Virus record (IMG/VR): IMGVR_UViG_3300045988_114753
Length of the DNA: 64,000 bases
Source of the DNA: a virus
Strand: one strand, 5' to 3'
A model generated the notes under the pieces. That model did not search any database. It saw only the letters and a program-made list of their open reading frames with translations, and was not told the origin of the DNA. Shown in pieces: positions 3,839-25,951 of the stretch; position 1 is the first letter of the stretch; each line of letters begins with the position of its first letter. The position numbers were made by a program, and so were the translations under genes.

Positions 3839-4042
3839 ATGGAAAATAATATATCAAAAGACTTTAGAGTTTCTATATTTACGACTATAGAAGAAGCTGA
3901 TATAATTCTAAATGCGTTAGCAGAAAAGGCTTTAAGAATAGAAGATTTGAGGCAATACATTTATGATAGCGTAAATGAACAAGTTAAAATGGTCAATCCT
4001 CCCAAAGAGGAAGAAAAGGTTAAAAAAAGGAAGGAAAAATAA
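3839..4042 (+). CDS. hypothetical protein
   Basis: Track ORF, co-directional tiling. Confidence 0.55.
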   Translation: MENNISKDFRVSIFTTIEEADIILNALAEKALRIEDLRQYIYDSVNEQVKMVNPPKEEEKVKKRKEK

Positions 4043-4045
4043 GTA

Positions 4046-4279
4046 ATGGAAAATATTAAATTAGTATGTAAAGATTGTAAGAAAGAATTTGATTTTACAG
4101 TAGGAGAACAAAGATTTTATGAAGAAAAGGGGTTTGCTGCTCCAATTCGTTGTAAAGAATGTAGAGATGCTAAAAAGGCTCGTAATCTTGAAAGAGAACA
4201 AGCTAATAGCAACACAGAAGAAACTTTTGAAGATATGTTAAAAAGATTTCAAGCTAATACTGTAAAAATTGAAAAATAA
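4046..4279 (+). CDS. zinc-ribbon protein
   Basis: CKDCKKEF...EQRFYEEKGF..PIRCKECR, a CxxC...CxxC ribbon. Confidence 0.6.
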   Translation: MENIKLVCKDCKKEFDFTVGEQRFYEEKGFAAPIRCKECRDAKKARNLEREQANSNTEETFEDMLKRFQANTVKIEK

Positions 4280-4292
4280 TAGGAGAGATAAT

Positions 4293-4643
4293 ATGGACAC
4301 TAAAGAATTTAAAGGTGTCATTGAGGACATCGTGGAAACAAGGATGACCAAAAAAGGTATAACTAAATATGTATCTGCTATTGTAAAGAAAGTCAATAGT
4401 GATGGTAGTGTAAATGTATATTTACCTCCAGATACAGAAAAAGTAATTTCTAATGTACTTAATAAGACGGGAGAAAGCCTTACTGTAGGTGACTCTGTTG
4501 AGTTATGTACAAAAAACGGAAAAACAAGCAATGCTTGGGTTTCGGTTAAACACGGCACGAATTTTAGTGTCGATAAAAAGATTGCTGATTTAAAACTTGG
4601 CAATGTCTCACAACTTAATTATACAGTTGTAGATGAATGGTAA
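4293..4643 (+). CDS. hypothetical protein
   Basis: ATG at 4293 is preceded by an AGGAGAG RBS. The track start at 4269 lacks an RBS. Confidence 0.55.
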   Translation: MDTKEFKGVIEDIVETRMTKKGITKYVSAIVKKVNSDGSVNVYLPPDTEKVISNVLNKTGESLTVGDSVELCTKNGKTSNAWVSVKHGTNFSVDKKIADLKLGNVSQLNYTVVDEW

Positions 4644-4825
4644 AAGGAGGAAATATTATGTTTAGAAAAATGTTCATAGGGGGGGGGCATCTAGGATTTA
4701 ATTCTAGTGTCCATTCTCCTATAAAAAACTTAGTTGAGGGGGGGGGCAGCTACAACTTATAGTTGTCGCTCTTACTCAACAAATAAACCTTCTGCAAAGG
4801 AGGTTAAATGTTAGAGGTGGTTTAA

Positions 4826-5236
4826 TTGGCTAAATCAATTAAACTAAAAGACAATACCTATTGGGACAGTAAAGGAGTCATTTATAAGGGTGCTGATTTA
4901 GAAACAACTATCGATACTATAAAAAGTAGTATCCCTATTAAAATAAGCCAACTATCTAATGATAGTGGTTATGTAACATTAAATCATTTACCTATGGCAT
5001 ACAGTTTCAACGCTAGCTCGTCGGGGAGTGCTGGTGTAGATGAGTTTAAAAATTATATTATCAATAGTGCCCCTGTGGGCTTTAGTTGGTGGTATGTAAA
5101 TATAGGAGGGTCTGTTAGTTGTGCTTTAGTACAAAAAGCAAACAGTAACTATTTAAGTTTTTTACATTTCTCTTATGGAATAACTCTCACTCAATATAGG
5201 TACTTGGCTGGGACTTGGTACAGTACTAGCTTTTAA
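4826..5236 (+). CDS. Cassette paralog A (conserved N-terminus AKSIKLKDNTYWDS, unique C-terminus)
   Basis: TTG start with GAGGTGG RBS. The first ~30 aa are shared with the ORFs at 5268, 5959 and 6349. Confidence 0.6.
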   Translation: MAKSIKLKDNTYWDSKGVIYKGADLETTIDTIKSSIPIKISQLSNDSGYVTLNHLPMAYSFNASSSGSAGVDEFKNYIINSAPVGFSWWYVNIGGSVSCALVQKANSNYLSFLHFSYGITLTQYRYLAGTWYSTSF

Positions 5237-5267
5237 TCATTAAAATAAAACTCTAACAAAATTAAAT

Positions 5268-5822
5268 ATGAGTAAAAGTATAAAATTAAACAATGATACA
5301 TTTTGGGATAGTTCTGCTGTGTCACATAATAAAAAGCCATTAAACGATATTTTAAATAATATTGTTTGTGATTATACTTTACCTGAAAACAAAAGTTATA
5401 TGAGCGTTTCTGTGACGTTAGAGCCAAATGCTGTATATCGTTTTGAATTAGGTATTGTATTTATTGGTGCTGAAAGAAATGTGTTTTTAGTGCCTAATGG
5501 TTTATGGGACAGTAATAGTTGTAGTTATTCTTTTATAACTATTCAATCAAGCGAGATTTATAAAGAGCAGCAAACTAGTGCTAGTAGAATAGGATTAGGA
5601 TTGGCAAATTCTTCTAACGATTATTGGAGTGTCTTTACTGGGACTATTGATACATCGTATGGAAGGTTTAATATATTTAGTCAATCTAATAGTATTAATG
5701 GTTCAAGTGTTGGTGGAGGAAGATATAATGGCGATATAAATATCGTGTCATTAACCTTTATATCAGCCGATTGGAAAGATATATTAGCAGGGGCTAAATT
5801 CAAAATGTGGAAAGTTGGTTAA
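5268..5822 (+). CDS. Cassette paralog B (SKSIKLNNDTFWDS N-terminus)
   Basis: ATG 31 nt after the paralog A stop; no obvious SD; shared N-terminal module. Confidence 0.6.
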   Translation: MSKSIKLNNDTFWDSSAVSHNKKPLNDILNNIVCDYTLPENKSYMSVSVTLEPNAVYRFELGIVFIGAERNVFLVPNGLWDSNSCSYSFITIQSSEIYKEQQTSASRIGLGLANSSNDYWSVFTGTIDTSYGRFNIFSQSNSINGSSVGGGRYNGDINIVSLTFISADWKDILAGAKFKMWKVG

Positions 5823-5958
5823 TAGCAAACTATAAGTAGCGATACTTATGAATAAACAAAATAAATTTGTATATGTAGGGGGGGGCAACCAAGTAGTTGT
5901 GACAACTCCCATAATGAGTATATCTCCGAAAGGAGGTATGTGTTAGGTGGTGATTTAG

Positions 5959-6324
5959 TTGAGTAAGTCAATTAAATTGACCAATAATACTTATATAGAC
6001 TCTTCAGGTATTACTCACAATCAAAACAAACTTAGTGACGTATTAACTGATTTTGTTAAAGAAGTAGACGTTATGCTTGACAGAATTACATCTTATTCTG
6101 TAGGCACATATTACAGAGGAGTTAAGGATTTGTCGGGTTATATTCCAAAAGGATATAAAATTGTTTCAATAATTCCTACTTATCAATCATATGGAGATAG
6201 AAATTTTTTACAATATAATTTATATTATCAAAATAATTTGTTATATTGGCAAATGCTAGCTCAATATAATGGCGGCAACGCATTGATTATTGAAATCAGG
6301 TTATATCTAGTAAAAGATATATAA
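5959..6324 (+). CDS. Cassette paralog C (SKSIKLTNNTYIDSSG N-terminus)
   Basis: TTG start with GGTGGTGA RBS, behind the third G-run/hairpin leader. Confidence 0.6.
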   Translation: MSKSIKLTNNTYIDSSGITHNQNKLSDVLTDFVKEVDVMLDRITSYSVGTYYRGVKDLSGYIPKGYKIVSIIPTYQSYGDRNFLQYNLYYQNNLLYWQMLAQYNGGNALIIEIRLYLVKDI

Positions 6325-6348
6325 GTATTGTATAACACGAAATTCGAT

Positions 6349-6813
6349 ATGAGTAAATCAATTAAATTAAAAGATAATACATTCATCGACAGTTCTGGTG
6401 TTTCTCATAACAGAGTAACACTAAAAGCATATTTGCAATCATTGTTAGATGATGTAATACATATGAATTATAAAGATAATACTGAAATAGCAACTAATGA
6501 ATATAAAAACGGTAAAAGGGTATATGCAAAGAAATTAGTATTTACTACTACATTATCTGGGTCAGAAACGACGACCATTATTGCACACGGTATTACTGGT
6601 ATGACAGATATTTGGATAGATATGGGCAATTCCTATCTTAAATCTGTTGGTGCAACTATGGTTAGATGCCCTTTGCCTGTTTTAGGTTATTACGGAAACT
6701 TTAGTGATAGACTATATGTAATGTGTGATAATACTAACTTATATTTTTATCACGATACTGGGTGGGGAACTGCTTGGGAAAAGATTATCTTAGTTAAATA
6801 TACAAAAGATTAA
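6349..6813 (+). CDS. Cassette paralog D (SKSIKLKDNTFIDSSG N-terminus; C-terminus vaguely receptor-binding-protein-like)
   Basis: ATG at 6349, 24 nt after the paralog C stop; no SD. The TNEYKNGKRVYAKK segment is reminiscent of tail-fibre head domains (weak). Confidence 0.55.
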   Translation: MSKSIKLKDNTFIDSSGVSHNRVTLKAYLQSLLDDVIHMNYKDNTEIATNEYKNGKRVYAKKLVFTTTLSGSETTTIIAHGITGMTDIWIDMGNSYLKSVGATMVRCPLPVLGYYGNFSDRLYVMCDNTNLYFYHDTGWGTAWEKIILVKYTKD

Positions 6814-6830
6814 AAAGTCAGGAATTTATC

Positions 6831-6859
6831 TTGACTTTTTTCTTCGTCTATGTTATCAT
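6831..6859 (+). promoter_or_regulatory. sigma-A-like promoter for the polymerase gene
   Basis: TTGACT (6831-6836), 17-nt spacer, TGtTATCAT extended -10 (6854-6859). Confidence 0.5.
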
Positions 6860-6887
6860 TTATATGAAGATAGAGGGAGGCATAAAG

Positions 6888-9800
6888 ATGAATGAAGAAA
6901 AATCTAATTACGTCGTATATCATCTACATAGTGACTTTAGTCTTTTAGATAGCACAACGAAATTTGAAGATTATGTCATAATGGCTTCTAGTTTAGGACA
7001 AAAGGCAATATGTTTCACTGAGCACGGAAATATTATGCACTGGGTTGCTAAGAAGATGGCGTGTGATAAAGCTGGAATAAAATATCTTCACGGATGTGAG
7101 GTGTATTTAACAGCACAATTGGAGCCAAAGGTTCGTGACAATTATCATACGATTTTGATTGCAAAAAATATGGATGGATTAAGAGAACTAAATCAGCTAG
7201 TTAGTACATCCAATACTAGTAGTCACTTTTACTTTAAACCTAGAATATCATTCGATGAGTTCTTGAATATAAGTGATAATGTGATTAAAATATCGGCTTG
7301 TTTAGCATCGCCATTGGCACGATTAGAAGATGAAATAACTAATTTAACAATGAAAGATGATATTACAGACGAGGAAAAGCAAAGATTAGATTACTTGAAA
7401 AATAGTTTCAATGATGTATTATTGAAATATGATTATTATGAAATTCAACCACACATTAACAGTAAAGAACAAAAAATATACAACAAGAGATTATTTGAGT
7501 GGGCTAAAAAGTATAACAAACCATTAATTGCTGGCACAGATACTCATAGTCTTAATCAATATAAAGCAGAATGTCGTTCAATATTACAACTAGCTAAAGG
7601 TATTGAATTTGCAAATGAAGACCAATTTGATTTGACATATAAGTCTTATGACGAATTGGTACATATGTTTGAAGAACAAGACGCACTGCCAAGAAGTGTT
7701 TATCTACAAGCTATTGAAAATACAAACGTTATGGCAGACTCTTGTGAAGAAATTGTATTAGACAAGGAGTTCAAATATCCTAAAGTCTATGATGATGATA
7801 TTGCAACCATAAAAAGCAGATTGTGGGAGATGCTTAAAGAAAAAGTTGCTAGTGGGGCTATTCCTCAGGAGCAAATGCAATTATTCATAGATAATATCAA
7901 AACTGAACTTGCTGTATTTGAAAAGATTAATATGTGTGGTTTTATGTTATTTATGTCTGACTTAGTTAATTGGTGTCATAGTCACAATATACCAACAGGT
8001 TTCGCACGTGGTTCTTGTGGAGGTTCTTGTGTAGCCTATGTTTTAGGTATTATTGATATTAATCCAATTAAATGGAAAACGGTGTTCTCTCGTTTCGCTA
8101 ATGAAGATAGAAAAGAAATAGGCGATATTGATGTTGACTTTGCACCTAATGACCGTGAGATGGTATATAATCATATGATTGAAGAGTTTGGTGAACAATA
8201 TACAGCCTATATATTAGCAATTGGTACCGTTTCAGATAAAGGTTGTATCGATGAAATCGGTAGAGCCTTACACAGAAAAACAGATAAAGATATGTATTCT
8301 TTAGAAAACTTAAAGAAGATTAAAAAGGAATACGAGTCAAATCCAGAACAAGCAAAAGAAAAATATAGTGAATTATTTTACTATTTTGATGGTTTATTAA
8401 ACACTAATATATCTCAATCTATGCACCCTTGTGGTATGGTTGTTAGTCCAATTACATTAGAAGACAATTATGGCACATTATATAAAGACGACAAAAAGAT
8501 ACTTCAAATTGATATGGAAGATGTACACGAAATATCACTAGTTAAGTATGATATTTTAGGACTAAAAAATGTTGGAATTATAAAGGATGCCTGTGAGTAT
8601 GCTAATATCCCTTATCCAAAATCTAATGAAATAAATTGGGATGACCAAAAAGTTTGGGATGATATGTTGAGATGTCCTCAAGGTATATTTCAATTTGAGG
8701 GAGCATACGCATTTCAAATGCTATGCGAATTTAAACCAAAAAGTATATTTGATATGTCATTAGTAACGGCGGCATTACGACCAGGTGGAGCATCATATCG
8801 TGACTCATTAATGAAAAAAGACATACATCATAATATATCACCAATGATAGATGATATGTTAAAAGACAACTATGGTTATCTGGTGTATCAGGAAGACGTC
8901 TTAAAATTTTTACAACAAATATGTGGTTTGAGTGGAAGTGCCGCAGATAATGTTCGTAGAGCCATCGCTAGAAAGCAAATGGATAGGCTAGAACAAGCGT
9001 TACCATCAATTCAAGACGGATATGTCGAGAAGTCAGGAAAACCTCGTGAAGAGGCTATAAATGAGTTACAGGAGTATATCCAAATATTAATTGACTCTAG
9101 TTCGTATATGTTTGGTTACAATCACTCAATAGCGTATTGTATGGTTGGTTATCTATGTGCGTATTTAAGATATTATCATACTCCATATTTTATAATGGCG
9201 TATCTAAACAATGCACAAAATGAAGATGATATTGTTGGTGGTTTTGAAATGGCAAAATTATATGGTTATCAAATATTGCCACCTCGTTTTAGACACTCAA
9301 CTAATAAATATATGTATGACGAGGAAAATCATCATATTTATAAAGGTGTTGCTAGTATAAAATATTTGAATGATGGTGCGGCAGAATATCTTTATTCATT
9401 GCGTCACAATCATTATGACAACTTTATTAGTTTGTTACAACAAATTGAAGAAGATAGACAAATTAATTCCAGACAAATGGAAATATTGATACAATTACAA
9501 TATTTTGATGAGTTTGGCAAAAATAAAAAGTTGCTTGATACTTATAAATATTTCAAGGCATTGTATGGAAGAAAGACATTAGTAAAAGAAAAGTTGACAG
9601 ACCAAGGATTAACAACAGAAGATATTATAGATTGCTATGAAAAAGAAACAGAAAAGCAGTATGTTAATATAGACTATATGAAGATATTGGCTAATGTCGA
9701 GAAAAGAATACCTGATGAAATAGTGCCTATTACAGAACAAGTATTATTTGAGGCTGACGTTGTGGGATATATTAGTATGGTTTATGATGTTGACAAACGT

Positions 9801-14756: not shown

Positions 14757-14776
14757 TAAGTAAGGAGGAATTGACT

Positions 14777-15595
14777 ATGAAGAAAAAAATATTTGCAGTA
14801 TCGGATATTCACGGCGAATATGAAATATTAATTAAAGGATTAAAAGAGGCTGGTTTTGATGAAGACAATCCAGAGCATTTATTGGTTAGTGTCGGAGATG
14901 CTTTTGACCGTGGAGGAAATGCTTTGGCAGTATATGAATATTTAAAAAGATTATCTGATAAAGGAAGTGCAGTTGTACTAAAAGGTAATCATACTGGTTT
15001 CTTTACAGGATATTTAGATGGTACAATCTTATCGCCATTTAACTATTATAATAACGGGACAAACGAAACTATGGCTGACTTTTTACACGAAACAGCCCCA
15101 TTTGAGATGTATTGTGTATTAAGAGAAATAGACCAGCCAACCTATGGCGATTTTGCAGACTGGGTTAGTAGAGCTAGACAAGAAATAAATGGAGAGTTCC
15201 CAGAGTTATTAGAGTGGCTAAATACAAGACCATATTATTTAGAAACAGAGAACTATATATTTACTCACGGGGCAATAGATACAAATGCAAAAGATTGGCA
15301 TAAGCCACATTGTGAAAGATACCATTTTACAGATTGGGACGCCTTAATGTGGGATGATGGAAGTTTTTTTGAAAAAGAGATAAATAATACACATAAGACT
15401 GTCGTAATTGGTCATTTTGGGACAGCTACTTTAAGAAAAATGTATGGCTATTCACCAAATAGAAACCTAAAAGGAAGTTTTGACATATTAAAAAGAAAGG
15501 ATGGACGAGTTATTGCAATAGACGCAACAACCAATCTCTCTAAAAAAATTAATGTGTTAGTATTAGAAGATGAAGAAGTTATAGATAACATATAA
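14777..15595 (+). CDS. calcineurin-like metallophosphoesterase
   Basis: VSDIHGEY, GDAFDRGG and GNHT motifs. ATG 14777 lies 7 nt after AAGGAGGAA. Confidence 0.8.
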   Translation: MKKKIFAVSDIHGEYEILIKGLKEAGFDEDNPEHLLVSVGDAFDRGGNALAVYEYLKRLSDKGSAVVLKGNHTGFFTGYLDGTILSPFNYYNNGTNETMADFLHETAPFEMYCVLREIDQPTYGDFADWVSRARQEINGEFPELLEWLNTRPYYLETENYIFTHGAIDTNAKDWHKPHCERYHFTDWDALMWDDGSFFEKEINNTHKTVVIGHFGTATLRKMYGYSPNRNLKGSFDILKRKDGRVIAIDATTNLSKKINVLVLEDEEVIDNI

Positions 15596-15632
15596 TCTTT
15601 TCACTACAACAATAAAGAAGGAGGGAATATTT

Positions 15633-17573
15633 ATGAAAAACGATACAAAAAAGAAAATAATGGAAGTCTTAAATTGTTCAAATGTGCAAAATTCCAATGC
15701 TAATGTGGATGAATACTCATTTGGTGGCAGAAAGTTTGAAGCCGCTGGTATCTTATTAAAAGAAGTTGCCAGAGATGAATTTATTGAACCAGATGTATGG
15801 GAAGCATTTCAAGATAACCGTATTTATATTCACGATATGGATAACTATGCAACAGGTATGCATAATTGTTTATTTATAGATTTTGCAAAGCTATTTAAAG
15901 ATGGTTTTACAACTAGAAACGGCGACGTAAGACCACCTAGAAGTATTAGTACAGCAATGCAACAAGTAGCAGTAATATTTCAATGCCAAAGTCAAGTTCA
16001 ATTTGGTGGTGTAGCAAGTGCTCATATTGATTTTGATTTAGCACCATTTGTTGCGATGTCTTTTAAAAAGCATTTTAAAGATGGTTTGAAATATGTTTAT
16101 GAAGAGCCATTAAATTGCTATATACCACCAGAAGAAGAATGGCGTGTTGGAAATAAAGAATTACAAGAAAAATATTCAAAGGCATACAATTATGCTATTG
16201 ATATGTTAGAAAGAGAAGGTATGCAAGCTGCTCAAGGTTTATATCACAACTTAAATACTTTAGAAAGTAGAGCAGGTAGTCAATTACCATTTACATCTAT
16301 CAATTTTGGTAGAGATACTAGTGAAGAAGGTAGAATGGTCAGTAGATGGCTATTAATGGCTAGTTTAGATGGTATTGGCAAATTTCATAGAACCAGTATA
16401 TTCCCTATTGCTATATTTCAACATAAAAAAGGTATTAATGCAAATCCAGGAGACCCTAATTATGATTTGAAACAACTAGCAATAAAATCATTATGTAAGA
16501 GAATTTATCCTAACTTTGTAAACTGTGACTTTAGTGGTAATGTTGAAGACCCAGAAAATCCTGATACTTACAATTGCACAATGGGTTGTAGAACTGCTAT
16601 GTCATACGATAGACACGGTTTTGGTTATTCAAAGGTTGGACGTGGTAATGTAAGCCCCGTTACTATCAATTTACCAAAGATTGGTTTAAAACACGGAATT
16701 GCTTTAGGAACACGTAAAACAGCCGACATAAATGGCTTTTGGAAGGAACTAGATGAGGTATTAGCCATTGTGGAAAAAGCCTTAGTATCACGTTACAATC
16801 ATATTTGTAATCAAAATCCAAAAGCTGCCCCATTTATGTATAAAAATGAAACTATCAGAGGTTTTGATGGTGAAAACATTGCTAGTGCTATGAGACACGG
16901 CTCTCAAGCAGTTGGCGTACTTGGTATTGCAGAAATGTGTCAAGCGTTATTTGGTAAGAACCATTTAGACCCAGAAGTACATCAATTTGTAACAAAACTA
17001 GTACAACATATTAGTGGCTTTTGCAAAGAAGCATCTGAAAGAAACGATTTAAACTTTGGTGTTTATTATACTCCAGCCGAAAGTTGTTGCTATACTATAT
17101 GTAAAAGAACACGTGATGAATTTGGAGAAATTCCTAATATTACAGATAAAGAGTTCTTTACCAATAGTATTCACGTTCCTGTGTGGGAAGAAGTCGACGT
17201 CTTTAAGAAAATTGATATAGAGGCTCCTTTATGCAAATACGGAACTAGTGGTTGTATTACTTATACTGAATTTGAAAGTAAGATTATGGATAATCCTGAA
17301 GCCGTAGAACAAATTATTAACTACGCAATGGATAATGATGTGCCTTATTTTGCAATCAACTTCCCTATTGATACTTGTTTAGGTTGTGGTTATAGTGATG
17401 ACATAGCTGACGAATGTCCAATTTGCCATAGTACAAATATCGAACATTTGGCTCGTGTAACAGGCTATTTAACTACAGATGTATCTCATTTTAATAAAGG
17501 AAAACAAGAAGAAGTAAAATATAGATATAAACACACTAAAAAGACTTTTGGTGATGAAAATGACAAATATTAA
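15633..17573 (+). CDS. nrdD: anaerobic ribonucleoside-triphosphate reductase
   Basis: C-terminal zinc site CLGCGY...CPICHS and glycyl-radical motif ARVTGYL. Confidence 0.9.
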   Translation: MKNDTKKKIMEVLNCSNVQNSNANVDEYSFGGRKFEAAGILLKEVARDEFIEPDVWEAFQDNRIYIHDMDNYATGMHNCLFIDFAKLFKDGFTTRNGDVRPPRSISTAMQQVAVIFQCQSQVQFGGVASAHIDFDLAPFVAMSFKKHFKDGLKYVYEEPLNCYIPPEEEWRVGNKELQEKYSKAYNYAIDMLEREGMQAAQGLYHNLNTLESRAGSQLPFTSINFGRDTSEEGRMVSRWLLMASLDGIGKFHRTSIFPIAIFQHKKGINANPGDPNYDLKQLAIKSLCKRIYPNFVNCDFSGNVEDPENPDTYNCTMGCRTAMSYDRHGFGYSKVGRGNVSPVTINLPKIGLKHGIALGTRKTADINGFWKELDEVLAIVEKALVSRYNHICNQNPKAAPFMYKNETIRGFDGENIASAMRHGSQAVGVLGIAEMCQALFGKNHLDPEVHQFVTKLVQHISGFCKEASERNDLNFGVYYTPAESCCYTICKRTRDEFGEIPNITDKEFFTNSIHVPVWEEVDVFKKIDIEAPLCKYGTSGCITYTEFESKIMDNPEAVEQIINYAMDNDVPYFAINFPIDTCLGCGYSDDIADECPICHSTNIEHLARVTGYLTTDVSHFNKGKQEEVKYRYKHTKKTFGDENDKY

Positions 17574-18060
17574 AATTATGGGTATTGCTCATAATAGTGT
17601 CGTTGATGGTGTAGGCATTCGTGATGTAATATTTACAGCAGGATGCCCTCATCATTGCTATGGTTGTCATAATCCCGAAACGTGGAATATTAATAATGGC
17701 AAAGATTATACTATACAAGATATTATTAAAGAACTAAATACTCATTGTAATTTAACACTAAGTGGTGGAGAGCCATTCATACAAGCGAAACAATTAACAG
17801 AATTGATATTAGAATACAAAAAGATTAAACCAGAGCTTAATGTGTGGGTATATAGTGGCTATACTTATGAAGAAATAGTTCAAGACCCTATTAAATTAGA
17901 ATTGCTAAGACAATGCAATGTACTGGTAGATGGTCATTTTGAATTAGATAAGAAAATTAGAGGTCTTAAATTTAGAGGTTCTGCGAACCAAAGAATTATA
18001 GATATACAAGCCAGTTTAAAGGCTGGTAATGCTCGATTTTCACCAGAAAATATCGTATAA
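17560..18060 (+). CDS. nrdG: anaerobic RNR activating radical-SAM enzyme
   Basis: SVVDGVGIR; CxxxCxxC cluster GCPHHCYGCHN; GGEP. The start is ambiguous (17548, 17554 or 17560). Confidence 0.85.
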   Translation: MTNIKIMGIAHNSVVDGVGIRDVIFTAGCPHHCYGCHNPETWNINNGKDYTIQDIIKELNTHCNLTLSGGEPFIQAKQLTELILEYKKIKPELNVWVYSGYTYEEIVQDPIKLELLRQCNVLVDGHFELDKKIRGLKFRGSANQRIIDIQASLKAGNARFSPENIV

Positions 18061-18155
18061 TGATATTTAGAGGTGAAAATAAGGCATATTTGCTCCAGTA
18101 AATGCACATTTTAGTGCACTATATGGAGAAAATAAAGTAAGAAAGGAAGAGAATT

Positions 18156-18521
18156 ATGAAAGAAAAAATCACAGAAGAATATGAAAAATTTGAAAATATT
18201 ATGAAGGGAATAGATAATCACCTATGTGCCTTGATACTAACTGATATTATGGCATCATTAACTACTGTTTATAAAGATGATAAAGGAGAAATCAATAAAG
18301 ACTATACAGAATTTGACAATATGGTCAAAAACATTAAAGAATTATTGAATAGTGTTGATACAATTCCCACAATTGACTTGATTAGAGCAACACAAGAAAA
18401 TCTTGATAGTATTAAAAGAGTAACAGACGAATGCAAATATTCTATGAGAACATTGTCTTGGATAAAAAATGATTTATTAGAAGAAGAAGATGTTAAAAAA
18501 GGAGGAAAAAAGGATGCGTAA
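18156..18521 (+). CDS. hypothetical protein
   Basis: GAAAGGAAGAG RBS; track ORF. Confidence 0.6.
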   Translation: MKEKITEEYEKFENIMKGIDNHLCALILTDIMASLTTVYKDDKGEINKDYTEFDNMVKNIKELLNSVDTIPTIDLIRATQENLDSIKRVTDECKYSMRTLSWIKNDLLEEEDVKKGGKKDA

Positions 18522-18990
18522 ATTTGAAAGAGTTAGCGATAAAGAATGGAATAAGACTATAGGAACTGTTTGGGCTACAATATATGACGGTATTTTACCA
18601 AAACGTAGCACAAAAAAGTCTGCTGGGTACGACATTTATAGCCCTATTGATGTAACAGTCCCTTCTCACGGAATGGTTAAAATTCCTACTGGTATTAAAG
18701 TTATGATGGAAGATGATGAAATACTATCAATTTATCCTAGAAGTAGTATAGGATTTAAGACTGGTATCCGACTAGCCAATACTGTTGGTATAGTAGATGC
18801 TGACTATTATGGCAATCCTGACAACGAAGGACATATATTTATTAAATTATACAACCCAACAGACACTGCTTATGAAATAGAGGCTGGAGATAAAATTGCT
18901 CAAGGTATTTTTACTAAATATTTGATTGTAGATGACGAAGAAGAAATCGAAACAGAACGTTCTGGTGGCTTAGGTAGCACAGGAAAGTAA
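18514..18990 (+). CDS. dut: dUTP diphosphatase (trimeric dUTPase)
   Basis: AGYDI, PRSS, GIVDADYYG and GGLGSTG motifs. ATG 18514 after AGGAGG. Confidence 0.9.
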   Translation: MRKFERVSDKEWNKTIGTVWATIYDGILPKRSTKKSAGYDIYSPIDVTVPSHGMVKIPTGIKVMMEDDEILSIYPRSSIGFKTGIRLANTVGIVDADYYGNPDNEGHIFIKLYNPTDTAYEIEAGDKIAQGIFTKYLIVDDEEEIETERSGGLGSTGK

Positions 18991-20646: not shown

Positions 20647-20722
20647 TGGTACAGGGAATAGGACTTGAACCTATAACCCCACCCTTATAAGGAGTGTGCT
20701 CTAACCATTGAGCTATCCCTGC
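20647..20722 (-). tRNA. tRNA-Ile (anticodon TAT)
   Basis: GCAGGGA-TA-GCTC..GAGC-A-CACTC CTTATAA GGGTG-GGGTT-ATAGG TTCAAGT CCTAT-TCCCTGT-A-CCA. Confidence 0.8.
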
Positions 20723-20725
20723 ATA

Positions 20726-20785
20726 TGGAGCCGATGGGCAAGAATTTCACTTGCTTAGTTACCTAGGACTATTATACTCATCGAC
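20726..20785 (-). ncRNA. 60-nt tRNA-like mini-element with acceptor stem and encoded CCA
   Basis: GTCGATG...GCAAG TGAAATT CTTGC..CATCGGC-T-CCA. No D arm; non-canonical T loop. Confidence 0.3.
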
Positions 20786-20789
20786 ATAT

Positions 20790-20866
20790 TGGAGCACCTA
20801 ATAAGATTTGAACTTATGTTCAGGGAGTTGCAGTCCCTTGCCTTAACCAAACTTGGCTATAGGTGC
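20790..20866 (-). tRNA. tRNA-Cys (GCA)
   Basis: GCACCTA..AGGGA CTGCAAC TCCCT..ATAAG TTCAAAT CTTAT-TAGGTGC-T-CCA. Confidence 0.8.
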
Positions 20867-20868
20867 AT

Positions 20869-20926
20869 TGGTGGATATTTTTTCGTATTAGATGCAGTAC
20901 TACACCAAATATTTATAGAAATATCC
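20869..20926 (-). ncRNA. 58-nt acceptor-stem/CCA mini-element
   Basis: GGATATT...(10-bp internal hairpin)...AATATCC-A-CCA. No T or D arms. Confidence 0.25.
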
Positions 20927-20933
20927 AAAACTA

Positions 20934-21062
20934 GCTCATACCCGAGTCGAACGGTAACACTCGTCAGTGTGACCCACATCTCTGAGCATATATGGTGGAC
21001 ATAGATAGAGTCAAACTATCCTCCTCAATTTTGTTCCTTAATTGAGTATCTCGGAGTCCGCC
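20934..21062 (-). ncRNA. two further degenerate tRNA-like elements (about 54 and 69 nt, no CCA)
   Basis: First: GCTCAGA..ACACT GACG AGTGT..TTCGACT..TATGAGC. Second: GGCGGAC..CTCAATT AAGGAACAA AATTGAG..GATAG TTTGACT CTATC..GTCCACC. Confidence 0.2.
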
Positions 21063-21067
21063 CAAAT

Positions 21068-21144
21068 TGGTTGCGGAGACGGGATTTGAACCCGTGACAC
21101 CTAGGTTATGAGCCTAGTGAGCTACCAGACTGCTCTACTCCGCG
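21068..21144 (-). tRNA. tRNA-Met (CAT), initiator-like C1-A72 mismatch
   Basis: CGCGGAG..CTAGG CTCATAA CCTAG..ACGGG TTCAAAT CCCGT-CTCCGCA-A-CCA. Confidence 0.8.
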
Positions 21145-21465
21145 ATAATATTGGACATAAAATATGTCCAAACCCTAATTTTAACGAAGGGATGAGGTTG
21201 GAGGGTGATAACTAACCCACTGTAGTGCTGCTAGTTTAAGTATTTAAACAGGTACTAGCGACCGACTATAACCTCTCAAATTCGTCTTCCTACTCGAGTA
21301 GAAATAGAGAAAACTAGGTCGCCGACATAAATGTCGTCGACTACTCTTTACATCAGCAACCACGCAAAAGATAATTCTTTTTTCCCTGAAACCAACTGAA
21401 AACCTACCTCACTCAGTCGGACTTTGCCTAACCCATAATAAACTATTAGACGTTCCAAAACGGCT

Positions 21466-21903
21466 CTAAGAAGCCCTTTTTAATTCCTCATAGTCACAAA
21501 TAATTTGTTGAGGATATTTAACACTAATTCCTAATGACGACATAGATGACAATATGTCTTTTTTATCATCCACTAATAATACTTGAGTATTCATTATTCC
21601 ATTTATTTTTAGGAACCATTCAACATAATCACTCTTACGTTCTCCAGGATGTAAGAAAAATGATTGAGAAGTGTTAGGAAAGTATTTATTCAACCATTCT
21701 ATCTTCTCTTTTATTCCAAAGGCTCCTCCTTGTACTTGAGATATTATAATGAATTTGGCTTTAGGATATAAAGTGTTTAGTGCATCAATAACGATTTGGA
21801 TTGGACGTTTATTAATATACATCCCATCACAAAATTCTATGTCTTTACAAGTGATGTTCTCTGCTATTGTATTATCCATATCAACAAACACATAACTAAT
21901 CAT
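21466..21903 (-). CDS. HAD-family phosphatase (5'(3')-deoxyribonucleotidase-like)
   Basis: Motif I FVDMDNT; AGGAGG RBS. Confidence 0.55.
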   Translation of the reverse strand: MISYVFVDMDNTIAENITCKDIEFCDGMYINKRPIQIVIDALNTLYPKAKFIIISQVQGGAFGIKEKIEWLNKYFPNTSQSFFLHPGERKSDYVEWFLKINGIMNTQVLLVDDKKDILSSMSSLGISVKYPQQIICDYEELKRAS

Positions 21904-22384
21904 TATTGTCGCCTCCTAACAATCTTAATGCCTTTTGATAATCATATATAGTAAACCCTAATTGACAATCGCATCTAACCAACACAGGCAATAAATGGCA
22001 CATATCAGAGTCATCATCAATGATTATAAATTTGTTTTTAAAATTGTTGTCATCAATCCATTTTTGTATTTCTAGTCCTCGTGCTTGATATAATATTGGC
22101 GTCATACCTATTACTTTAATACTAGGATTAAACCCAGATTTAGTAATGATGTCTTGTAATTGCGTTAACGTCATACCAATACGCCAAGAACTAGAAACGA
22201 CTATATCATAAGGTATTTTATTATATAATTCATTAAGCCACCCAATTGCTTGTTTATTATTAAGAGATGCACGACCAATTTTATGTATATTGAAAGACCA
22301 AGAACCATCTTTATCTTTCTCCCAATATATAGTTTCTACAACTCCATCAAAATCTAAAAAGACAACGGGTTTTGAATTACTCAT
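21896..22384 (-). CDS. HAD-like phosphatase (resembles the HAD domain of RNA-repair proteins)
   Basis: VVFLDFDGVV motif I. ATG 22384 after GGAGGT. The track N-terminal extension overlaps tRNA-Gln. Confidence 0.5.
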   Translation of the reverse strand: MSNSKPVVFLDFDGVVETIYWEKDKDGSWSFNIHKIGRASLNNKQAIGWLNELYNKIPYDIVVSSSWRIGMTLTQLQDIITKSGFNPSIKVIGMTPILYQARGLEIQKWIDDNNFKNKFIIIDDDSDMCHLLPVLVRCDCQLGFTIYDYQKALRLLGGDNND

Positions 22385-22404
22385 AATATACCTCCATATT
22401 CTTT

Positions 22405-22481
22405 TGGCTGCCTCGGGAAGCCTCGAACTTCCAAATTCAGGTGTCAAAGACCTGTGGCTTTACCAGTTTGCCTACGAGGCA
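22405..22481 (-). tRNA. tRNA-Gln (TTG)
   Basis: TGCCTCG..CAGGT CTTTGAC ACCTG..GGAAG TTCGAGG CTTCC-CGAGGCA-G-CCA. Confidence 0.8.
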
Positions 22482-22618
22482 ATAAATATTTTCCCAAGGC
22501 TTCTAAAGTTTCTTGGGATAGGACTTATACATAAGGCTTTAAGGGCTTGTACTTGACCCAAAGTTTCTTATGACGCCATAAGTGTAAAGGGGTAAAAAAT
22601 GAAATGAAAACATTTTTC

Positions 22619-22695
22619 TGGTGCACCATCTAAGAGTCGAACTTAGTACCTCTCGCGTATCAGACGAACGCTCTAACCAAATGAGCTAATGGTGC
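22619..22695 (-). tRNA. tRNA-Ile (GAT)
   Basis: GCACCAT-TA-GCTC..GAGC..TTCGT CTGATAC GCGAG..CTAAG TTCGACT CTTAG-ATGGTGC-A-CCA. Confidence 0.8.
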
Positions 22696-22707
22696 AAGGG
22701 AGGGGAA

Positions 22708-24765
22708 TTAATTCCCACTTAATAAATGTATAAGACTGTCTTTTGCTATATTACTTAATGATAAATCAATGTCGGCATCCATTGTTTGAATACTGTCTTG
22801 TGAAGTACCATCGGGCATTACAGTTCTTTGTATAATACTATATTGTGGCTGGTCTATAACTATTGCACCAGCATCTTTTAATAAGTCATTTAATTTTAAT
22901 TGTAGCATATTGTATGTGCGTAGATAATCAAATGAGCCCATTGTAATACTGTTTCTAGTAGATGTACTGCATCCTCTAGGGGTTCTAACATCACCACCAG
23001 CACTAAAGTCGTTGAAGTAGAATTTTACAGTATCTCCTATGGTAATTAAACCAAGAACCTTTTGTCTTTCTGTATTCTTTATTTCCATATCAATCTTTTC
23101 GATTATATCGTTAGGATTAATTGCATAATTTTTACGAATAGCAGATGAATTTGCAGGAGCTTTTGCTAAAACAAACTCAAATGGTACGTCTTTAGTATTA
23201 CTAGTAAACATATTCAATGTAATTAAGAACGCACCGTGACCATAATTACGTCCTACATAGAACAATTCAGTAGCTCCAGTTGGTGCTGGGGCATCTGTAA
23301 TATCGCCACTAAACAAAATATCTGATGCAGAACTTCTATAAGAAGCATCCCAACCAAATACTTCATTTTTGTTCATTTGTTTTAAATCAAGGTCTACTCT
23401 TTCTTCTCCATTAGGTTTTATTTCACCATAGAAACCTCGAGATTGATATTTACCATCGCCTGGTAAATTTGTCCAATGAACACCATATACCAAATCATCA
23501 ATTCTAGGAACTTCAATATACGAACCAGCAGGAATATTACCATTAAATTGTTTTTCACTTGTAGGGGCTGCGTATGTAATATTGTTTGGTATGTATATAT
23601 ATTTACCTTTTACATTTGTTGAAATTCTATCAACCAAGTGAGTCTTAATAATTTGACTAATATCTTCTAATTTTTTGATATATGCTTGTGTTTTTGGTGG
23701 CAGACTTGTAACGTATGACTTACCATTTCTAATCTTATATACTACATTATTATTACCATATAATCTATACAATACCCCGTTTAATATTCTAATCTCTCTA
23801 AAGATAGTAATATTATCAAGAGCACTACATAACTCATTAACGTTAATATTAACATTAGTATCAGTCAAGCAATCTAAAATATTTCTTTTTAGTGGCTTGT
23901 GATTATTATTAGCCATCTTTCTTAATTTATTGATAAGTGCATTAATACTTTTACGAGTAACTTCATCTTTTTCAGTTCTACACTCATCTTGTTTTATCTT
24001 TAATGCAAGAAATAGATTTTTATTTCTTAAGAATATTGAAGATAACTTTTCATAGCCATTTGGAGTTTTGATAACATATAGTTGTAACATATTTAATGCT
24101 TTAGCTTTATCACTTTTCTTTATGGCTCTAATAGTATCTACATTTTGTATTTTTAAAGTACCGTTTGTAAGTTTAAATAATAAAAATCTCAAGAACTCTT
24201 CTGGGTTACGTGGCATAATGTTATATTTATCATATAAGGTAGTTTTTATTTCTCTATTGACAATTTCGTCAAATCTATTTTTGTCAATAAAATCTGATAA
24301 AACCATAACATCTTTGACCGTTTGTTCAGACAATGCAATACCGCTAGTTAAAAGCCCCATTAATTTTTCAGTTAGTTGTTCTGATGTATAAGGTTTAATT
24401 GTAATTAGTTCAATATTATCAACATCTAACTCTGGGATTTCTAACTTTTCTTTAGGAATATACACTAAATCCTCACGATAAATACCTAAACTCTCAAAAC
24501 CATAAGTTGTAATATAGTGCATAATTTGTTGAGCAATTAAATCTTCAATAGGTGCGTTACGAACTATTTCAAAATCTTTATGGAATGTTTGGTTCCATTT
24601 TTGACCGTCTTTACCATATAATTCGATAGCCTCTTTAACAACTGCTTCACTAGCACTACTTGGGATTAATAAACCATATTTTAATCCTTCTTCTGAAACA
24701 CTATTAGATTTTTCTCCTAAAAAACCTTTGAATAATCTTAATACCTCTTTTTCCATTTCTTTCAT
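22708..24765 (-). CDS. large orphan protein (helical N-terminal half, beta-rich C-terminal half)
   Basis: 685-aa ORF immediately downstream of the four structured RNA units. The C-terminal segment VDLDL...FSGDITDAPAPTGATE loosely recalls TerD-type folds. The start could instead be 24756. Confidence 0.75.
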   Translation of the reverse strand: MKEMEKEVLRLFKGFLGEKSNSVSEEGLKYGLLIPSSASEAVVKEAIELYGKDGQKWNQTFHKDFEIVRNAPIEDLIAQQIMHYITTYGFESLGIYREDLVYIPKEKLEIPELDVDNIELITIKPYTSEQLTEKLMGLLTSGIALSEQTVKDVMVLSDFIDKNRFDEIVNREIKTTLYDKYNIMPRNPEEFLRFLLFKLTNGTLKIQNVDTIRAIKKSDKAKALNMLQLYVIKTPNGYEKLSSIFLRNKNLFLALKIKQDECRTEKDEVTRKSINALINKLRKMANNNHKPLKRNILDCLTDTNVNINVNELCSALDNITIFREIRILNGVLYRLYGNNNVVYKIRNGKSYVTSLPPKTQAYIKKLEDISQIIKTHLVDRISTNVKGKYIYIPNNITYAAPTSEKQFNGNIPAGSYIEVPRIDDLVYGVHWTNLPGDGKYQSRGFYGEIKPNGEERVDLDLKQMNKNEVFGWDASYRSSASDILFSGDITDAPAPTGATELFYVGRNYGHGAFLITLNMFTSNTKDVPFEFVLAKAPANSSAIRKNYAINPNDIIEKIDMEIKNTERQKVLGLITIGDTVKFYFNDFSAGGDVRTPRGCSTSTRNSITMGSFDYLRTYNMLQLKLNDLLKDAGAIVIDQPQYSIIQRTVMPDGTSQDSIQTMDADIDLSLSNIAKDSLIHLLSGN

Positions 24766-24784
24766 TCTCCTTTTTTACTTAATA

Positions 24785-24912
24785 CGTCGGAAGGTAATAT
24801 TATGACTGGTGCCTTCAACCACTTGGCTACTCCTCATAAAATGAAGAGGGTGGATTTGAACCACCGTATACCAGTGTCCTCTTTTTTAGTATGAAAGGAA
24901 CCCTCTATGACG
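24785..24912 (-). ncRNA. Structured RNA unit 1: bulged closing helix plus circularly permuted tRNA-like domain
   Basis: 5' CGUC-AUA-GAGGGU pairs with ACCUUC-C-GACG 3'. Inside: ACUGG-UAUAC-GGUGG UUCAAAU CCACC-CUCUUCA-UUUUA-UGAGGAG-UA-GCC AAGUGGUUGAA GGC-A-CCAGU. Confidence 0.6.
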
Positions 24913-24930
24913 TAATTATATTATATTAAA

Positions 24931-25052
24931 AGGCGAAGAGTAACTAATTCGTTGCTCTACCCAGTTGAGCTAATCGCCAGTGATGGCGATATGGGACTCG
25001 AACCCATAACCTACGGCTTACAATGCATTATAAACAGGAACTCTTTATGCCT
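24931..25052 (-). ncRNA. Structured RNA unit 2: bulged closing helix plus permuted tRNA-like domain
   Basis: AGGC-AUA-AAGAGU pairs with ACUCUU-C-GCCU. Inside: AUGGG UUCGAGU CCCAU-AUCGCCA-UCAC-UGGCGAU-UA-GCUC AACUGGGUA GAGC. Confidence 0.6.
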
Positions 25053-25068
25053 AATAATCAAATTGAAT

Positions 25069-25143
25069 AGACGAGAACTAATAATCGTTGGAATTGAACC
25101 AACCAAACCATTCTTTGTTAATAAAAAGGAAGTTCTTATGTCT
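25069..25143 (-). ncRNA. Structured RNA unit 3: same closing helix, apical T-arm-like hairpin only
   Basis: AGAC-AUA-AGAACU pairs with AGUUCU-C-GUCU. Inside: GUUGG UUCAAUU CCAAC. Confidence 0.5.
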
Positions 25144-25160
25144 ATTAAATACAATATTTG

Positions 25161-25222
25161 AGACGAAGAGTAAATCTAAACCATTTACCTAATCAATTGT
25201 AATAAAGGAACTCTTTATGTCT
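25161..25222 (-). ncRNA. Structured RNA unit 4: same closing helix, short apical region
   Basis: AGAC-AUA-AAGAGU pairs with ACUCUU-C-GUCU, with a 38-nt insert. Confidence 0.45.
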
Positions 25223-25242
25223 CATATCATACTGTCAACTAT

Positions 25243-25271
25243 ATAATATCATAATATTACTTAGTTGTCAA
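25243..25271 (-). promoter_or_regulatory. sigma-A-like promoter driving units 4 to 1 and the 685-aa ORF
   Basis: Minus strand TTGACA (25271-25266), 17 nt, TGaTATTAT (-10 at 25248-25243). Confidence 0.5.
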
Positions 25272-25288
25272 GCATTATTTACAAATTT

Positions 25289-25380
25289 TGGCGTTAGGTG
25301 TAGGATTTGAACCCACGGTACGCTTCCACGTACGCTTGATTTCAAGTCAAGTGCTTTAAACCGAACTCAGCCAACCTAAC
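25289..25380 (-). tRNA. tRNA-Ser (TGA), long variable arm
   Basis: GTTAGGT..CTTGA CTTGAAA TCAAG-CGTACGTGGAAGCGTACC-GTGGG TTCAAAT CCTAC-ACCTAAC-G-CCA. Confidence 0.8.
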
Positions 25381-25771: not shown

Positions 25772-25790
25772 AATAATCTCCCAATCAAAA

Positions 25791-25948: not shown

Positions 25949-25951
25949 AAA

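Follow-up and report, generated by a model that had tools for sequence, protein, structure and literature searches.

We begin by considering a stretch of viral DNA of 64,000 nucleotides (IMG/VR record IMGVR_UViG_3300045988_114753), which we call the window, and in particular an array of four small genes, here termed cassettes 1 to 4, that lies with its upstream sequences at positions 4,644 to 6,813. Two of the cassettes are preceded by leaders in which a short upstream open reading frame (uORF) runs through long tracts of G, and the gene before the array encodes a protein of 116 amino acids (aa) that we call the base. The elements on which the argument turns are listed below; nucleotides are abbreviated nt, open reading frames ORFs and Shine-Dalgarno sequences SDs. 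Assemblies and loci other than the window are referred to by L numbers, and individual proteins by P numbers.

4293-4643, + strand: base, the putative anchor protein, 116 aa from the ATG at 4293; the ORF is open from TTG 4269, and the product ends ...GNVSQLNYTVVDEW before the stop
4644-4650, + strand: SD of uORF1, AAGGAGG, -12.2 kcal/mol, within the top 9% of window ORFs
4658-4762, + strand: uORF1, 34 codons as sequenced, crossing both G9 tracts, with its stop 66 nt before the start of cassette 1
4679-4687, + strand: G tract 1, G9
4738-4746, + strand: G tract 2, G9
4826-5236, + strand: cassette 1, TTG start, 136 aa, an N-terminal adaptor and a unique C-terminal head
5268-5822, + strand: cassette 2, ATG start, 184 aa, no SD, 31 nt past the cassette 1 stop
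5848-5946, + strand: uORF3, 32 codons as sequenced, no SD, 26 nt past the cassette 2 stop
5878-5885, + strand: G tract 3, G8
5959-6324, + strand: cassette 3, TTG start, 121 aa
6349-6813, + strand: cassette 4, ATG start, 154 aa, no SD, 24 nt past the cassette 3 stop

The four cassettes have the motif M[AS]KSIKLxxxT[YF]xDS...L in common, with 10 invariant columns, and pairwise BLASTP aligns them only within the first 32-44 residues (E 1e-6 to 3e-10); past residue 35 there is either no match or one with E >= 0.12. An earlier note on this DNA, made from the letters alone, had described a shared N-terminus with unrelated C-termini in the four ORFs, TTG starts on cassettes 1 and 3, and cassettes 2 and 4 that start 24-31 nt past the preceding stop without an SD. 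All of this stands, the SD duplex energies of cassettes 2 and 4 being +1.7 and -0.7 kcal/mol against a genome median of -9.5. The SDs of these two cassettes and of uORF3 are among the weakest 1-10% of window ORFs, and cassette 2 is probably translated by coupling to cassette 1.

We turn our attention to the G tracts. They are the only G runs of at least 7 in the 64 kb, all three on the + strand and within 1.2 kb of each other; the window contains no G6 or G7 runs, and its longest C run is 5. Overlapping G7 matches number 8 against 0.57 expected, a count reached by none of 100 shuffles. With the G+C content of the phage genome at about 31%, the run counts and shuffles bear out the earlier remark that runs of 8-9 G at three positions are striking in so AT-rich a genome.

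The next question is whether the tracts vary in length. Lengths are read here from consensus assemblies, about 20 of them independent, and the comparison is between assemblies. The variants found are:

Tract 1 (usual length 9): six records from five contigs have 10 and one has 8; one has an in-frame G6, and two have interrupted forms
Tract 2 (usual length 9): three have 8, three have 10 and one reads G-T-G8
Tract 3 (usual length 8): six have 9 and one has 7

In total the length differs in roughly 35-40% of the cells of this comparison, and leader 1 outside its tracts is nearly invariant among the assemblies. One assembly (L004) differs from the window by 6 single-nucleotide polymorphisms over 5.5 kb and one extra G. 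Two controls are available. The 5.5 kb just mentioned contain 15 A/T runs of 6-7 nt; 14 of them do not vary, and the exception seems to be lineage-linked. The second control is the 13.7-26.1 kb region in ten independent assemblies that are 96.6-99.98% identical to the window (a look-up around 60987-61568 returned a single contig, and this region was used instead); there 3 of 193 A/T-run cells differ (1.6%), and none of the 17 T8 cells does. Set against this 1.6%, the variation of the G tracts between consensus assemblies agrees with their earlier designation as slipped-strand sites.

Two further observations concern these runs. The A7 run at 4022-4028, at the 3' end of the ORF at 3839-4042, is A6 in five assemblies, with a product of 68 instead of 67 aa, a difference that appears to track lineage and not to vary freely. 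Furthermore, two Logan contigs end exactly at G tracts (the start of L009 and the start of L010, at window positions of about 4679 and 4740), one of them in C28; such ends could mean that length heterogeneity broke the assembly graph there, or that the sequencing of poly-G produced an artefact.

What would a change of tract length do? Both G9 tracts are crossed by the SD-led 34-codon ORF that the earlier note had pointed out and whose SD falls in the top decile, and one G more or less in tract 1 makes uORF1 end within about 15 nt. With tract 2 at G8 the uORF stop is the TAG at 4812-4814, and at G10 it is the TAA at 4831-4833, overlapping the TTG start of cassette 1. Likewise uORF3 crosses the G8 tract to a TAG (5944-5946) that lies 15 nt short of the cassette 3 TTG; with G9 it runs on to the TAA at 5964-5966, again overlapping the TTG start, and with G7 it meets an early stop. 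We had considered that the uORF might read through into the cassette as a fusion, and rejected it: the cassette frame has several stops in the leader, one of them directly before the TTG.

This arrangement recurs in related phages. Every leader inspected has a short ATG-started uORF whose ATG lies roughly 20-50 nt upstream of the repeat into which it runs; the uORF SD is strong in first leaders and missing from internal leaders, which begin shortly after the stop of the preceding cassette. After the repeat, the +2 frame (relative to the cassette) is open for 45-111 nt and ends at a TAA at +5, over cassette codons 2-3. In the second frame the stop lies at -12 to -27 and is in most cases a conserved TAG next to the SD; in the third it comes early, between -35 and -75. 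All 13 of 13 leaders with G tracts have the +2 frame open, where the chance per leader from dinucleotide shuffles is 0.04-0.29; when only the non-homologous 5' parts are counted, 10 of 10 have it open, and the probabilities multiply to 8e-6. It is likewise open in seven leaders with repeats other than G, for a total of 20 of 20. The +2-frame peptides are unconserved beyond a shared 3' block, and selection therefore seems to act on the act of translation and not on the peptide.

All three frame states are represented among the reference sequences. The +5-overlap state is found as sequenced in, for example, L069, L101, L125 (third leader), L127 (second leader), L078 and L118, and, for leader 3 of the window lineage, in L007, L008, L011 and L056-L058. 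The window as sequenced has leader 1 in the early-stop state and leader 3 in the -15 state. Within the window lineage the states are distributed as follows:

Leader 1: early stop in 13, stop near the SD in 3, +5 overlap in 1
Leader 3: early stop in 1, stop near the SD in 14, +5 overlap in 6

At the beginning of uORF3 there is also a small conserved hairpin, AUAAGUA-GCGA-UACUUAU, which ends in the uORF3 AUG (window 5831-5850) and is found again in L125 just upstream of 4877. The start of this second switch may be structured too, or may depend on ribosomes arriving from cassette 2.

To place the leaders in a wider setting, we consider further loci of the cassette family, fetched from viral contigs and genomes and amounting to about 530 kb. 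About a third of these loci have related repeat leaders. Unrelated phages and prophages (L068/L069, L070, L101, L120, L125, L126, L127) have G tracts of 7-11 at 45-139 nt before their cassettes, and throughout the 530 kb every G/C run of at least 7 is a G run on the coding strand, with no C run among them. Some TTG-start cassettes seem at first to be leaderless; they have the homologous leader with another repeat at the position of the tract:

(CA)n: L078, L106, L107
(GCAA)n: L092
(GCAAA)n: L086, L128
(CATA)n: L118, L090
(CTTA)n: L126
(ACGA)n and (TGTA)n: L072

Across 33 distinct repeat leaders the repeat unit is 1, 2, 4 or 5 nt and never 3, and the end of the repeat lies 45-138 nt (median 100) before the cassette start. 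The 32 kb upstream of cassettes contain 12 tetranucleotide repeats, and the other 506 kb contain 5. These repeats vary as well: L078 and L079, from different metagenomes, are identical across 8,005 bp save for (AC)14 versus (AC)11, and L086 and L128 differ by (ATAC)14 versus 18 and (AAGCA)10 versus 8. That different non-triplet repeats occupy one position of homologous leaders implies that frame-shifting hypermutability itself is under selection. The leader is thereby seen to be conserved in other phages and prophages, and none of the outcomes that the earlier note had named as refuting, namely invariant tracts, a leader without conservation or cassettes unconnected with host recognition, was found. 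Its idea of the G tract as the switch element is kept in part: the tract is hypervariable, and it is one among several interchangeable non-triplet repeats. Scanned against Rfam at the gathering thresholds, the sequence returns tRNAs only, and a permissive scan of the leader gives one chance-level miRNA match, so that the leader is not a described RNA family.

Two findings from these loci belong to other matters. A possible case of poly-G phase variation within an ORF, in the relatives L016/L086, was discarded because G8 versus G7 proved to be a G-to-T substitution (L086 versus L128) and not a change of length. An unrelated phage (L034 5350-5620, L035 660-935, L037, L038) has tandem units of about 121 nt that match the leader pattern by chance, each with AAAGGAGGTTTATGTTTGAGGTGG followed by a hairpin GGTGACGG...CCGTCACC.

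We next consider the RNA. The predicted folds of the two window leaders are more stable than those of shuffled sequences (z = -6.1 and -4.0), as is that of L015 (z = -6.4), and each G tract is paired with a CU-rich stretch downstream. The predicted elements are:

About 4676-4722, + strand: tract 1 hairpin
About 4733-4780, + strand: tract 2 hairpin
4786-4805, + strand: anti-SD:SD hairpin of leader 1, CCUUCU at 4788-4793 with AAGGAGG at 4797-4803
4808-4825, + strand: mini-ORF MLEVV, which contains the conserved TAG at 4812-4814 and overlaps the GGTGG SD at 4816-4820
4819-4845, + strand: start-codon hairpin of cassette 1, whose 5' arm GGUUUAAUUGG contains the TTG at 4826-4828
5919-5940, + strand: anti-SD:SD hairpin of leader 3, with a CUCC-GAAA-GGAG core
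5952-5978, + strand: start-codon hairpin of cassette 3, with the TTG at 5959-5961 in its 5' arm; the GGTGG SD is at 5946-5950

The hairpin that the earlier note saw sequestering an AAGGAGG-like sequence is present in the predicted folds of both leaders. Its tiny ORF (MLEVV or MC) is there in the window, and the ATG is found in only about half of the related leaders, so the tiny ORF is no core or essential part. The element that the earlier note did not have is the start-codon hairpin, of 11 bp, whose 3' arm is formed by the codons for S-I-K-L. The pairing probability of the start codon is 1.00 in 9 of 12 leaders, that of cassette 1 among them, and the mean pairing of the -15 to +6 region is 0.76 in leaders versus 0.52 in 54 leaderless cassettes of the family (p = 2e-6). 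When 17 leaders are compared, 97.3% of cells keep the pairs of the hairpin; sliding the register brings this down to 55% or less. At one pair, 8 leaders have A-U and 7 have G-C, the 3' partner being the synonymous first base of a Leu codon. In two leaders with ATG starts the start is apparently hidden by different sequences, as judged by eye. TTG starts are found on 23 of 33 cassettes with a repeat leader and on 2 of 81 without one (p = 3e-14). Read from the sequence, a weak start within a hairpin, combined with a uORF stop that overlaps this start in one frame, is the anatomy one would expect of translational coupling.

What kind of proteins would such leaders control? A profile of the 39-residue N-terminus, searched against 1.84 billion cluster representatives, matches 728 of them. 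Among the best 150 of the 728 the alignment begins at residue 1 in all, and the proteins are mostly of 100-190 aa. The annotated PHROG matches listed for these 150 belong to tail-fibre, tail, minor-tail, baseplate or virion-structural families, and the Pfam matches are Gp10_C, Gp53-like_C, H-type lectin (H_lectin), BclA_C, Alpha-L-AF_C and DUF1128. In 8 of 10 loci of relatives the array comes after a phrog_372/DUF859 tail protein, and in the loci checked it comes before holin/endolysin genes. The receptor-binding character suspected in the earlier note holds for the family, whose C-termini and array position are of tail type; for the four heads of the window itself no known domain gives a match. 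We also entertained the idea that the N-terminus is a capsid-targeting signal like that of the T4 internal proteins, and dropped it given the family-wide tail-fibre matches and the synteny. By tblastn, cassette 2 gives no match, nor does a 31-aa consensus of the adaptor, a query that is probably too short.

The DUF859 proteins that precede arrays match only the first 440-480 or so of the 743 profile positions and have the C-terminus ...L-x-Y-(D/E)-V-(V/I)-D-(E/T)-W. The DUF859 tail protein is a candidate platform for the small heads; a literature search found no functional study of DUF859. The 116-aa base of the window ends in the same terminal motif. Its AlphaFold 2 (AF2) model has an N-terminal helix and an OB-fold barrel, with a predicted confidence (pLDDT) of 82 overall and about 90 over residues 1-90, and a disordered tail. 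In BFVD the fold matches include collagen-repeat fibre proteins, minor tail proteins, Gp5/VgrG OB-fold proteins and baseplate proteins, and the OB-fold resembles those at the N-termini of tail fibres and spikes. Fold matches in the PDB are not significant (best E 0.013) and are generic OB folds, the phi812 baseplate, the Mu baseplate and VgrG among them, and a PDB sequence search with the base-protein profile found nothing. We had thought of the base as a truncated DUF859 C-terminus, an idea we abandoned because BLASTP similarity is absent beyond the terminal residues; the shared terminal motif alone is retained as evidence.

Homologues of the base come in two forms, either standing alone with the terminal motif or fused to different C-terminal domains without it. 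Among the fusions of base and head are P0003/P0004 (with the head of cassette 4), P0171, P0186 and P0166/P0176, and P0003/P0004 also do without the N-terminal adaptor of cassette 4. This pattern is the main support for regarding the terminal motif and the adaptor as a docking pair, with anchor and head making up one functional fibre. The small ORF at 4269-4643 belongs to the system, and its product is the likely anchor for the heads.

The array is also variable as a whole. Cassette 1 occurs as alleles of 136 aa and 143 aa (the latter in L003, L008 and L060), and cassette 2 as alleles of 184 aa and 169 aa, the shorter form in many assemblies. L055 has an out-of-frame deletion that leaves little of the anchor gene, takes away both leaders together with cassettes 1-2, and also removes the start of cassette 3. 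In L065 and L066 the whole array is collapsed into an anchor-head fusion, and the region is without G tracts. These alleles, the deletion and the collapse imply that the module is accessory and fast-evolving. A separate protein that involves cassette 4 is P0008 (102 aa, from a 609-nt ENA contig), which joins a cytidine/deoxycytidylate deaminase domain to the last 35 or so residues of the cassette and is either a deletion variant or an assembly chimera.

Combining these findings, we propose, with a probability of roughly 0.7, that the locus is a phage contingency locus in which a non-triplet repeat sets the frame of a uORF and so gates the translation of alternative tail-fibre heads. We infer the following course. 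The disordered tail of the OB-fold anchor (...L-x-Y-x-V-V-D-E-W) would dock the adaptor of about 30 aa (MSKSIKLxxNTYxDS...) of the four small heads, which are encoded as two pairs, each behind one switch leader. The short uORF of the leader would read into the slippage-prone non-triplet repeat, here G8-G9, and slippage of the DNA polymerase would give a new repeat length and so reset the uORF frame. In one frame, ribosomes would cross the structured leader, stop at the TAA over the weak TTG, open the hairpin and (re)initiate by coupling, the ON state. In a second frame they would stop 12-27 nt upstream, beside the SD, which is probably a partly ON state. In the third they would stop early and the start would remain locked, the OFF state. 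The second cassette of each pair, being without an SD, would be translated by coupling to the first. The outcome would be a phage population with a stochastic, heritable and reversible mix of receptor-binding tips.

A wider form of this proposal is that phages of uncultured gut Bacilli carry a dedicated and widespread leader device, made of a uORF, a non-triplet repeat of any kind and a locked TTG, for switching ON and OFF heads that dock in trans; for this we would give even odds. If true, one genome would yield a combinatorial, heritable and reversible mixture of host ranges, and the device would be a third general route of phage tropism switching, beside DNA inversion and diversity-generating retroelements.

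Several concerns weigh against the contingency locus as proposed. The tract lengths are all read from consensus assemblies, and poly-G is a known difficulty for Illumina chemistry; the di-, tetra- and pentanucleotide cases are free of this concern. Leader 1 is in the early-stop state in 13 of 17 assemblies, and if that state is OFF, cassettes 1-2 would be mostly silent. Cassettes 1 and 3 have GGTGG SDs of their own and may be translated somewhat in every state. The covariation of the start-codon hairpin amounts essentially to one or two pairs, in an element whose 3' arm is coding sequence. As the base has no BLASTP similarity to DUF859 beyond the terminal residues, the case for docking consists only of co-occurrence and fusions. 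For the base-head fusion P0003 the AF2 model is poor (pLDDT 56), and its PDB fold search, which gave no match at E <= 0.001 and below significance only scattered jelly-roll and fibre-head matches, was not used. To these are added the missing domain matches of the window's four heads, the position of the array among replication genes, an unexpected place for tail-fibre genes, and the promoter-like boxes described below.

The first of the other explanations places the action of the repeats in transcription, where they would alter promoter spacing or the 5' end of the transcript, or where an early uORF stop would lead to Rho-dependent termination (polarity). A sigma-70-like TTGAGG-18-TATAGT does span tract 2, and boxes of the form TTGAC(A/T)-17-xAxAxT can be seen by eye in four related loci, inside the uORF and just before the tetra- or pentanucleotide repeat:

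L086, about 4345-4385
L092, about 4800-4840
L118, about 2395-2430
L126, about 3975-4010

If these are real promoters, some transcripts would begin at the repeat without the uORF ATG. Selective Rho termination, moreover, gives phase variation at known invertible switches (review PMC12360218). However, promoter-like sites are no commoner than in shuffles (20 versus 16.4 +/- 4.6), tetranucleotide arrays of 56-80 nt cannot fit a promoter spacer, and a purely transcriptional action does not account for a +2 frame that is open in every case and ends on the start codon, nor for the locked TTG start itself. Transcriptional control is for these reasons unlikely, and phase variation of a promoter spacer was rejected as the main mechanism because long tetranucleotide arrays occupy the same position and promoter-like sites are not enriched. 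Polarity could act together with translational coupling.

A second explanation concerns the proteins: the window's cassettes would be not virion receptor-binding tips but early intracellular or surface proteins, for example of anti-defence or exclusion, with a shared N-terminus that has a different targeting role. Such a role would suit an array between replication genes, heads with no known domain, and a module dispensable enough to be mostly missing from the deletion variant L055. Dispensability suits an accessory fibre equally, however, and the domain matches across the family are all of tail or baseplate type, the usual place of the array is after a tail protein and before lysis genes, and the partner is an OB-fold anchor of tail-fibre type that is also found fused to heads. 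We therefore hold a non-virion role to be quite improbable.

That the tracts act at the level of RNA or ribosome within one genotype, by ribosome stalling on rare GGG codons, as in an attenuator-like sensor, or by ribosomal or transcriptional slippage on the run, with the DNA lengths incidental, seems very unlikely. Each tract is indeed read as a run of Gly in a uORF ahead of alternative hairpins, in a genome of about 31% G+C, and the phage encodes a tRNA-Gly(UCC) that offers a possible tie to a sensor. Tract lengths, however, range over 6-11 and are not kept at multiples of three, the CA, tetra- and pentanucleotide repeats are neither slippery for ribosomes nor runs of rare codons, and the DNA lengths do differ between near-identical genomes.

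Scarcely credible, finally, is a technical artefact or a neutral hotspot without regulation in front of constitutive cassettes, which could appeal to short-read consensus lengths, to the two contigs broken at tracts and to the occurrence of all three frame states in no obvious preferred pattern, but which must face the facts that neutral G8-G10 runs should decay in a genome otherwise without G6 or G7, that G runs persist in diverged lineages and other phages on one strand and at one position, that unrelated repeat types take the same site, and that chance accounts neither for the frame pattern nor for the TTG association or the start hairpin.

Returning to the contingency locus that we prefer, we describe its genomic setting. 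The array is flanked by genes for a primase-helicase, a PD-(D/E)XK exonuclease, a Gp157/Gam-like protein, a zinc-ribbon protein and DnaE, that is, by a replication module, as the earlier note had read it. This placement is peculiar to the lineage of the window phage; in most relatives the array is between the DUF859 tail protein and the lysis genes. A contig of Candidatus Coprovivens (L125) has the window's own layout, with a zinc-ribbon gene, a 120-aa protein, five cassettes and DnaE, and its leader has a double G tract as in the window. Megablast of the window DNA gives no similarity to known phages among the deposited phage records, and the nearest phages by DnaE, at about 41-44% identity, are a human faecal phage contig and large Clostridioides phages. 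The window phage is abundant in public gut metagenomes, where it occurs as contigs of 102-114 kb. A public assembly collection indexes one of its proteins in 153 blocks, and the record name of one assembly with the phage is that of a human gut metagenome. The metagenome-assembled genomes with prophage or binned relatives of the cassette family are labelled uncultured Bacilli, Candidatus Coprovivens and uncultured Tenericutes, and among the samples in their records are goat gut, rabbit and Hadza samples.

Some features of the neighbourhood stand apart from the switch. At the 5' end of dnaE (window about 6820-6910) a free-standing homing-endonuclease-like gene shows a presence/absence polymorphism: it is missing from the window and found in L002, L005, L007, L009 and L061 (a 175-aa ORF), L057 (206 aa) and L065/L066 (204 aa). 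One form of this site is a 511-nt insertion with a faint AP2 match, and another lineage has a NUMOD4/HNH_3 gene in the same place. The region 14771-18990 (L045 1027-5240) is devoted to nucleotide metabolism, with a metallophosphatase, NrdD and its radical-SAM activase, and a dUTPase; NrdD is an anaerobic ribonucleotide reductase, which fits an anaerobic gut host. At about 19.0 kb, between the dUTPase gene and a 104-aa gene, one assembly (L049 1160-5300) has an insertion of about 4 kb with a DDE_Tnp_1 transposase, three helix-turn-helix regulators, a zinc-ribbon protein and a 150-aa protein with a Gp10_C domain that is without the SKSIKL adaptor. Further on, at 20647-28665 on the - strand, there are 18 tRNA genes, Ile(UAU), Gly(UCC) and Trp(CCA) among them; this cluster sits where genes switch from the + to the - strand, and the GC skew changes sign at about 20 kb and again at about 60 kb.

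Host-range change is central to phage ecology and phage therapy, and to our knowledge the stochastic switches of phage tropism are few: DNA inversion, diversity-generating retroelements, and the in-gene poly-G of Campylobacter phage receptor-binding proteins (RBPs). The locus would add a modular and portable switch in which the RBP stays intact, its translation is gated, any non-triplet repeat apparently serves and the heads are controlled independently, on an element carried by a very common human-gut phage. The 728 clusters define a family of small head proteins of tail fibres that have a putative docking adaptor in common. The locus also holds a warning for annotation, as TTG-start genes behind structured leaders and repeat-containing uORFs are easily missed or mis-called.

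How does the locus compare with known systems? Host-range switches of phages include the Gin/G segment of Mu, the Cin inversion of P1, shufflons, and diversity-generating retroelements (Mtd of BPP-1). Like these, the window would present alternative C-terminal receptor-binding modules on a constant part, with stochastic switching; unlike these, its alternatives are separate polypeptides with a shared N-terminal adaptor. The four cassettes are all on the + strand, the inverted repeats are short, AT-rich and at most 25 nt, and there are no long direct repeats save the shared N-terminal codons, as a retroelement repeat pair would be. Among the neighbouring genes scanned, with the rest of the 64-kb window outside the scan, neither recombinase nor reverse-transcriptase families gave a match. 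The anatomy of the cassettes excludes both invertible segments and diversity-generating retroelements.

Several RBPs attach to a common virion site by a conserved N-terminal piece in multi-RBP phages such as CBA120 (TSP1-4), G7C (gp63.1/gp66) and SP6/K1-5 with their adaptors. The proposed arrangement of the window is alike in this respect and differs in that the adaptor has only about 30 residues, the heads have 100-190 aa, and their presence is apparently switchable individually.

The control itself resembles translational coupling by unmasking and leader-peptide control, as in the coat-replicase pair of MS2 and the leaders of the ermC/cat type: an upstream ribosome passes or ends at a hairpin that hides an SD or start, and the stop overlaps the start. 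In those systems the input is a metabolite, a drug or the upstream translation rate, whereas in the window it would be a heritable DNA repeat length.

Repeat slippage is known in other phages. Coliphages have contingency loci in homopolymers of at least 6 inside ORFs, for example T2 agt and T4 rIIA (Gomez, Barrick, Waters 2025 preprint, PMC12633550). In both cases polymerase slippage at repeats is invoked as a form of phage bet-hedging; the window type differs in using long G or multi-nucleotide repeats for arrays of tail-fibre heads, by way of a leader. Sorensen and colleagues are said to have described, in 2021 (Cell Rep 35:109214, as cited in PMC12823448), hypermutable poly-G tracts in receptor-binding genes of Campylobacter phages, the tracts lying within the genes themselves. 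In common with the window as we read it is poly-G slippage in a phage as a source of diverse receptor-binding proteins. By contrast, the three tracts of the window are all in uORF leaders upstream of cassette starts, its relatives swap the G tract for other repeats, and the hosts are uncultured low-GC gut Bacilli.

The closest parallel in principle is found in bacterial contingency loci, where surface genes are phase-variable through the tetranucleotide repeats of Haemophilus, the poly-G/C of Neisseria, the CTCTT of opa and the poly-G of Campylobacter. As in these, slippage-prone non-triplet repeats in a translated region would reset the frame, the genes concerned mediate contact with another organism, and several independent switches would give combinatorial diversity. 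The window locus differs in being phage-borne and in placing the repeat in a separate uORF instead of the 5' end of the regulated gene, so that the output apparently comes from the position of a stop relative to a locked start and the regulated protein is never frameshifted. Phase variation through repeats in genes for host interaction is, as a principle, long established in bacteria; a literature search found no paper on tail-fibre genes whose locked start is coupled to a repeat within a uORF.

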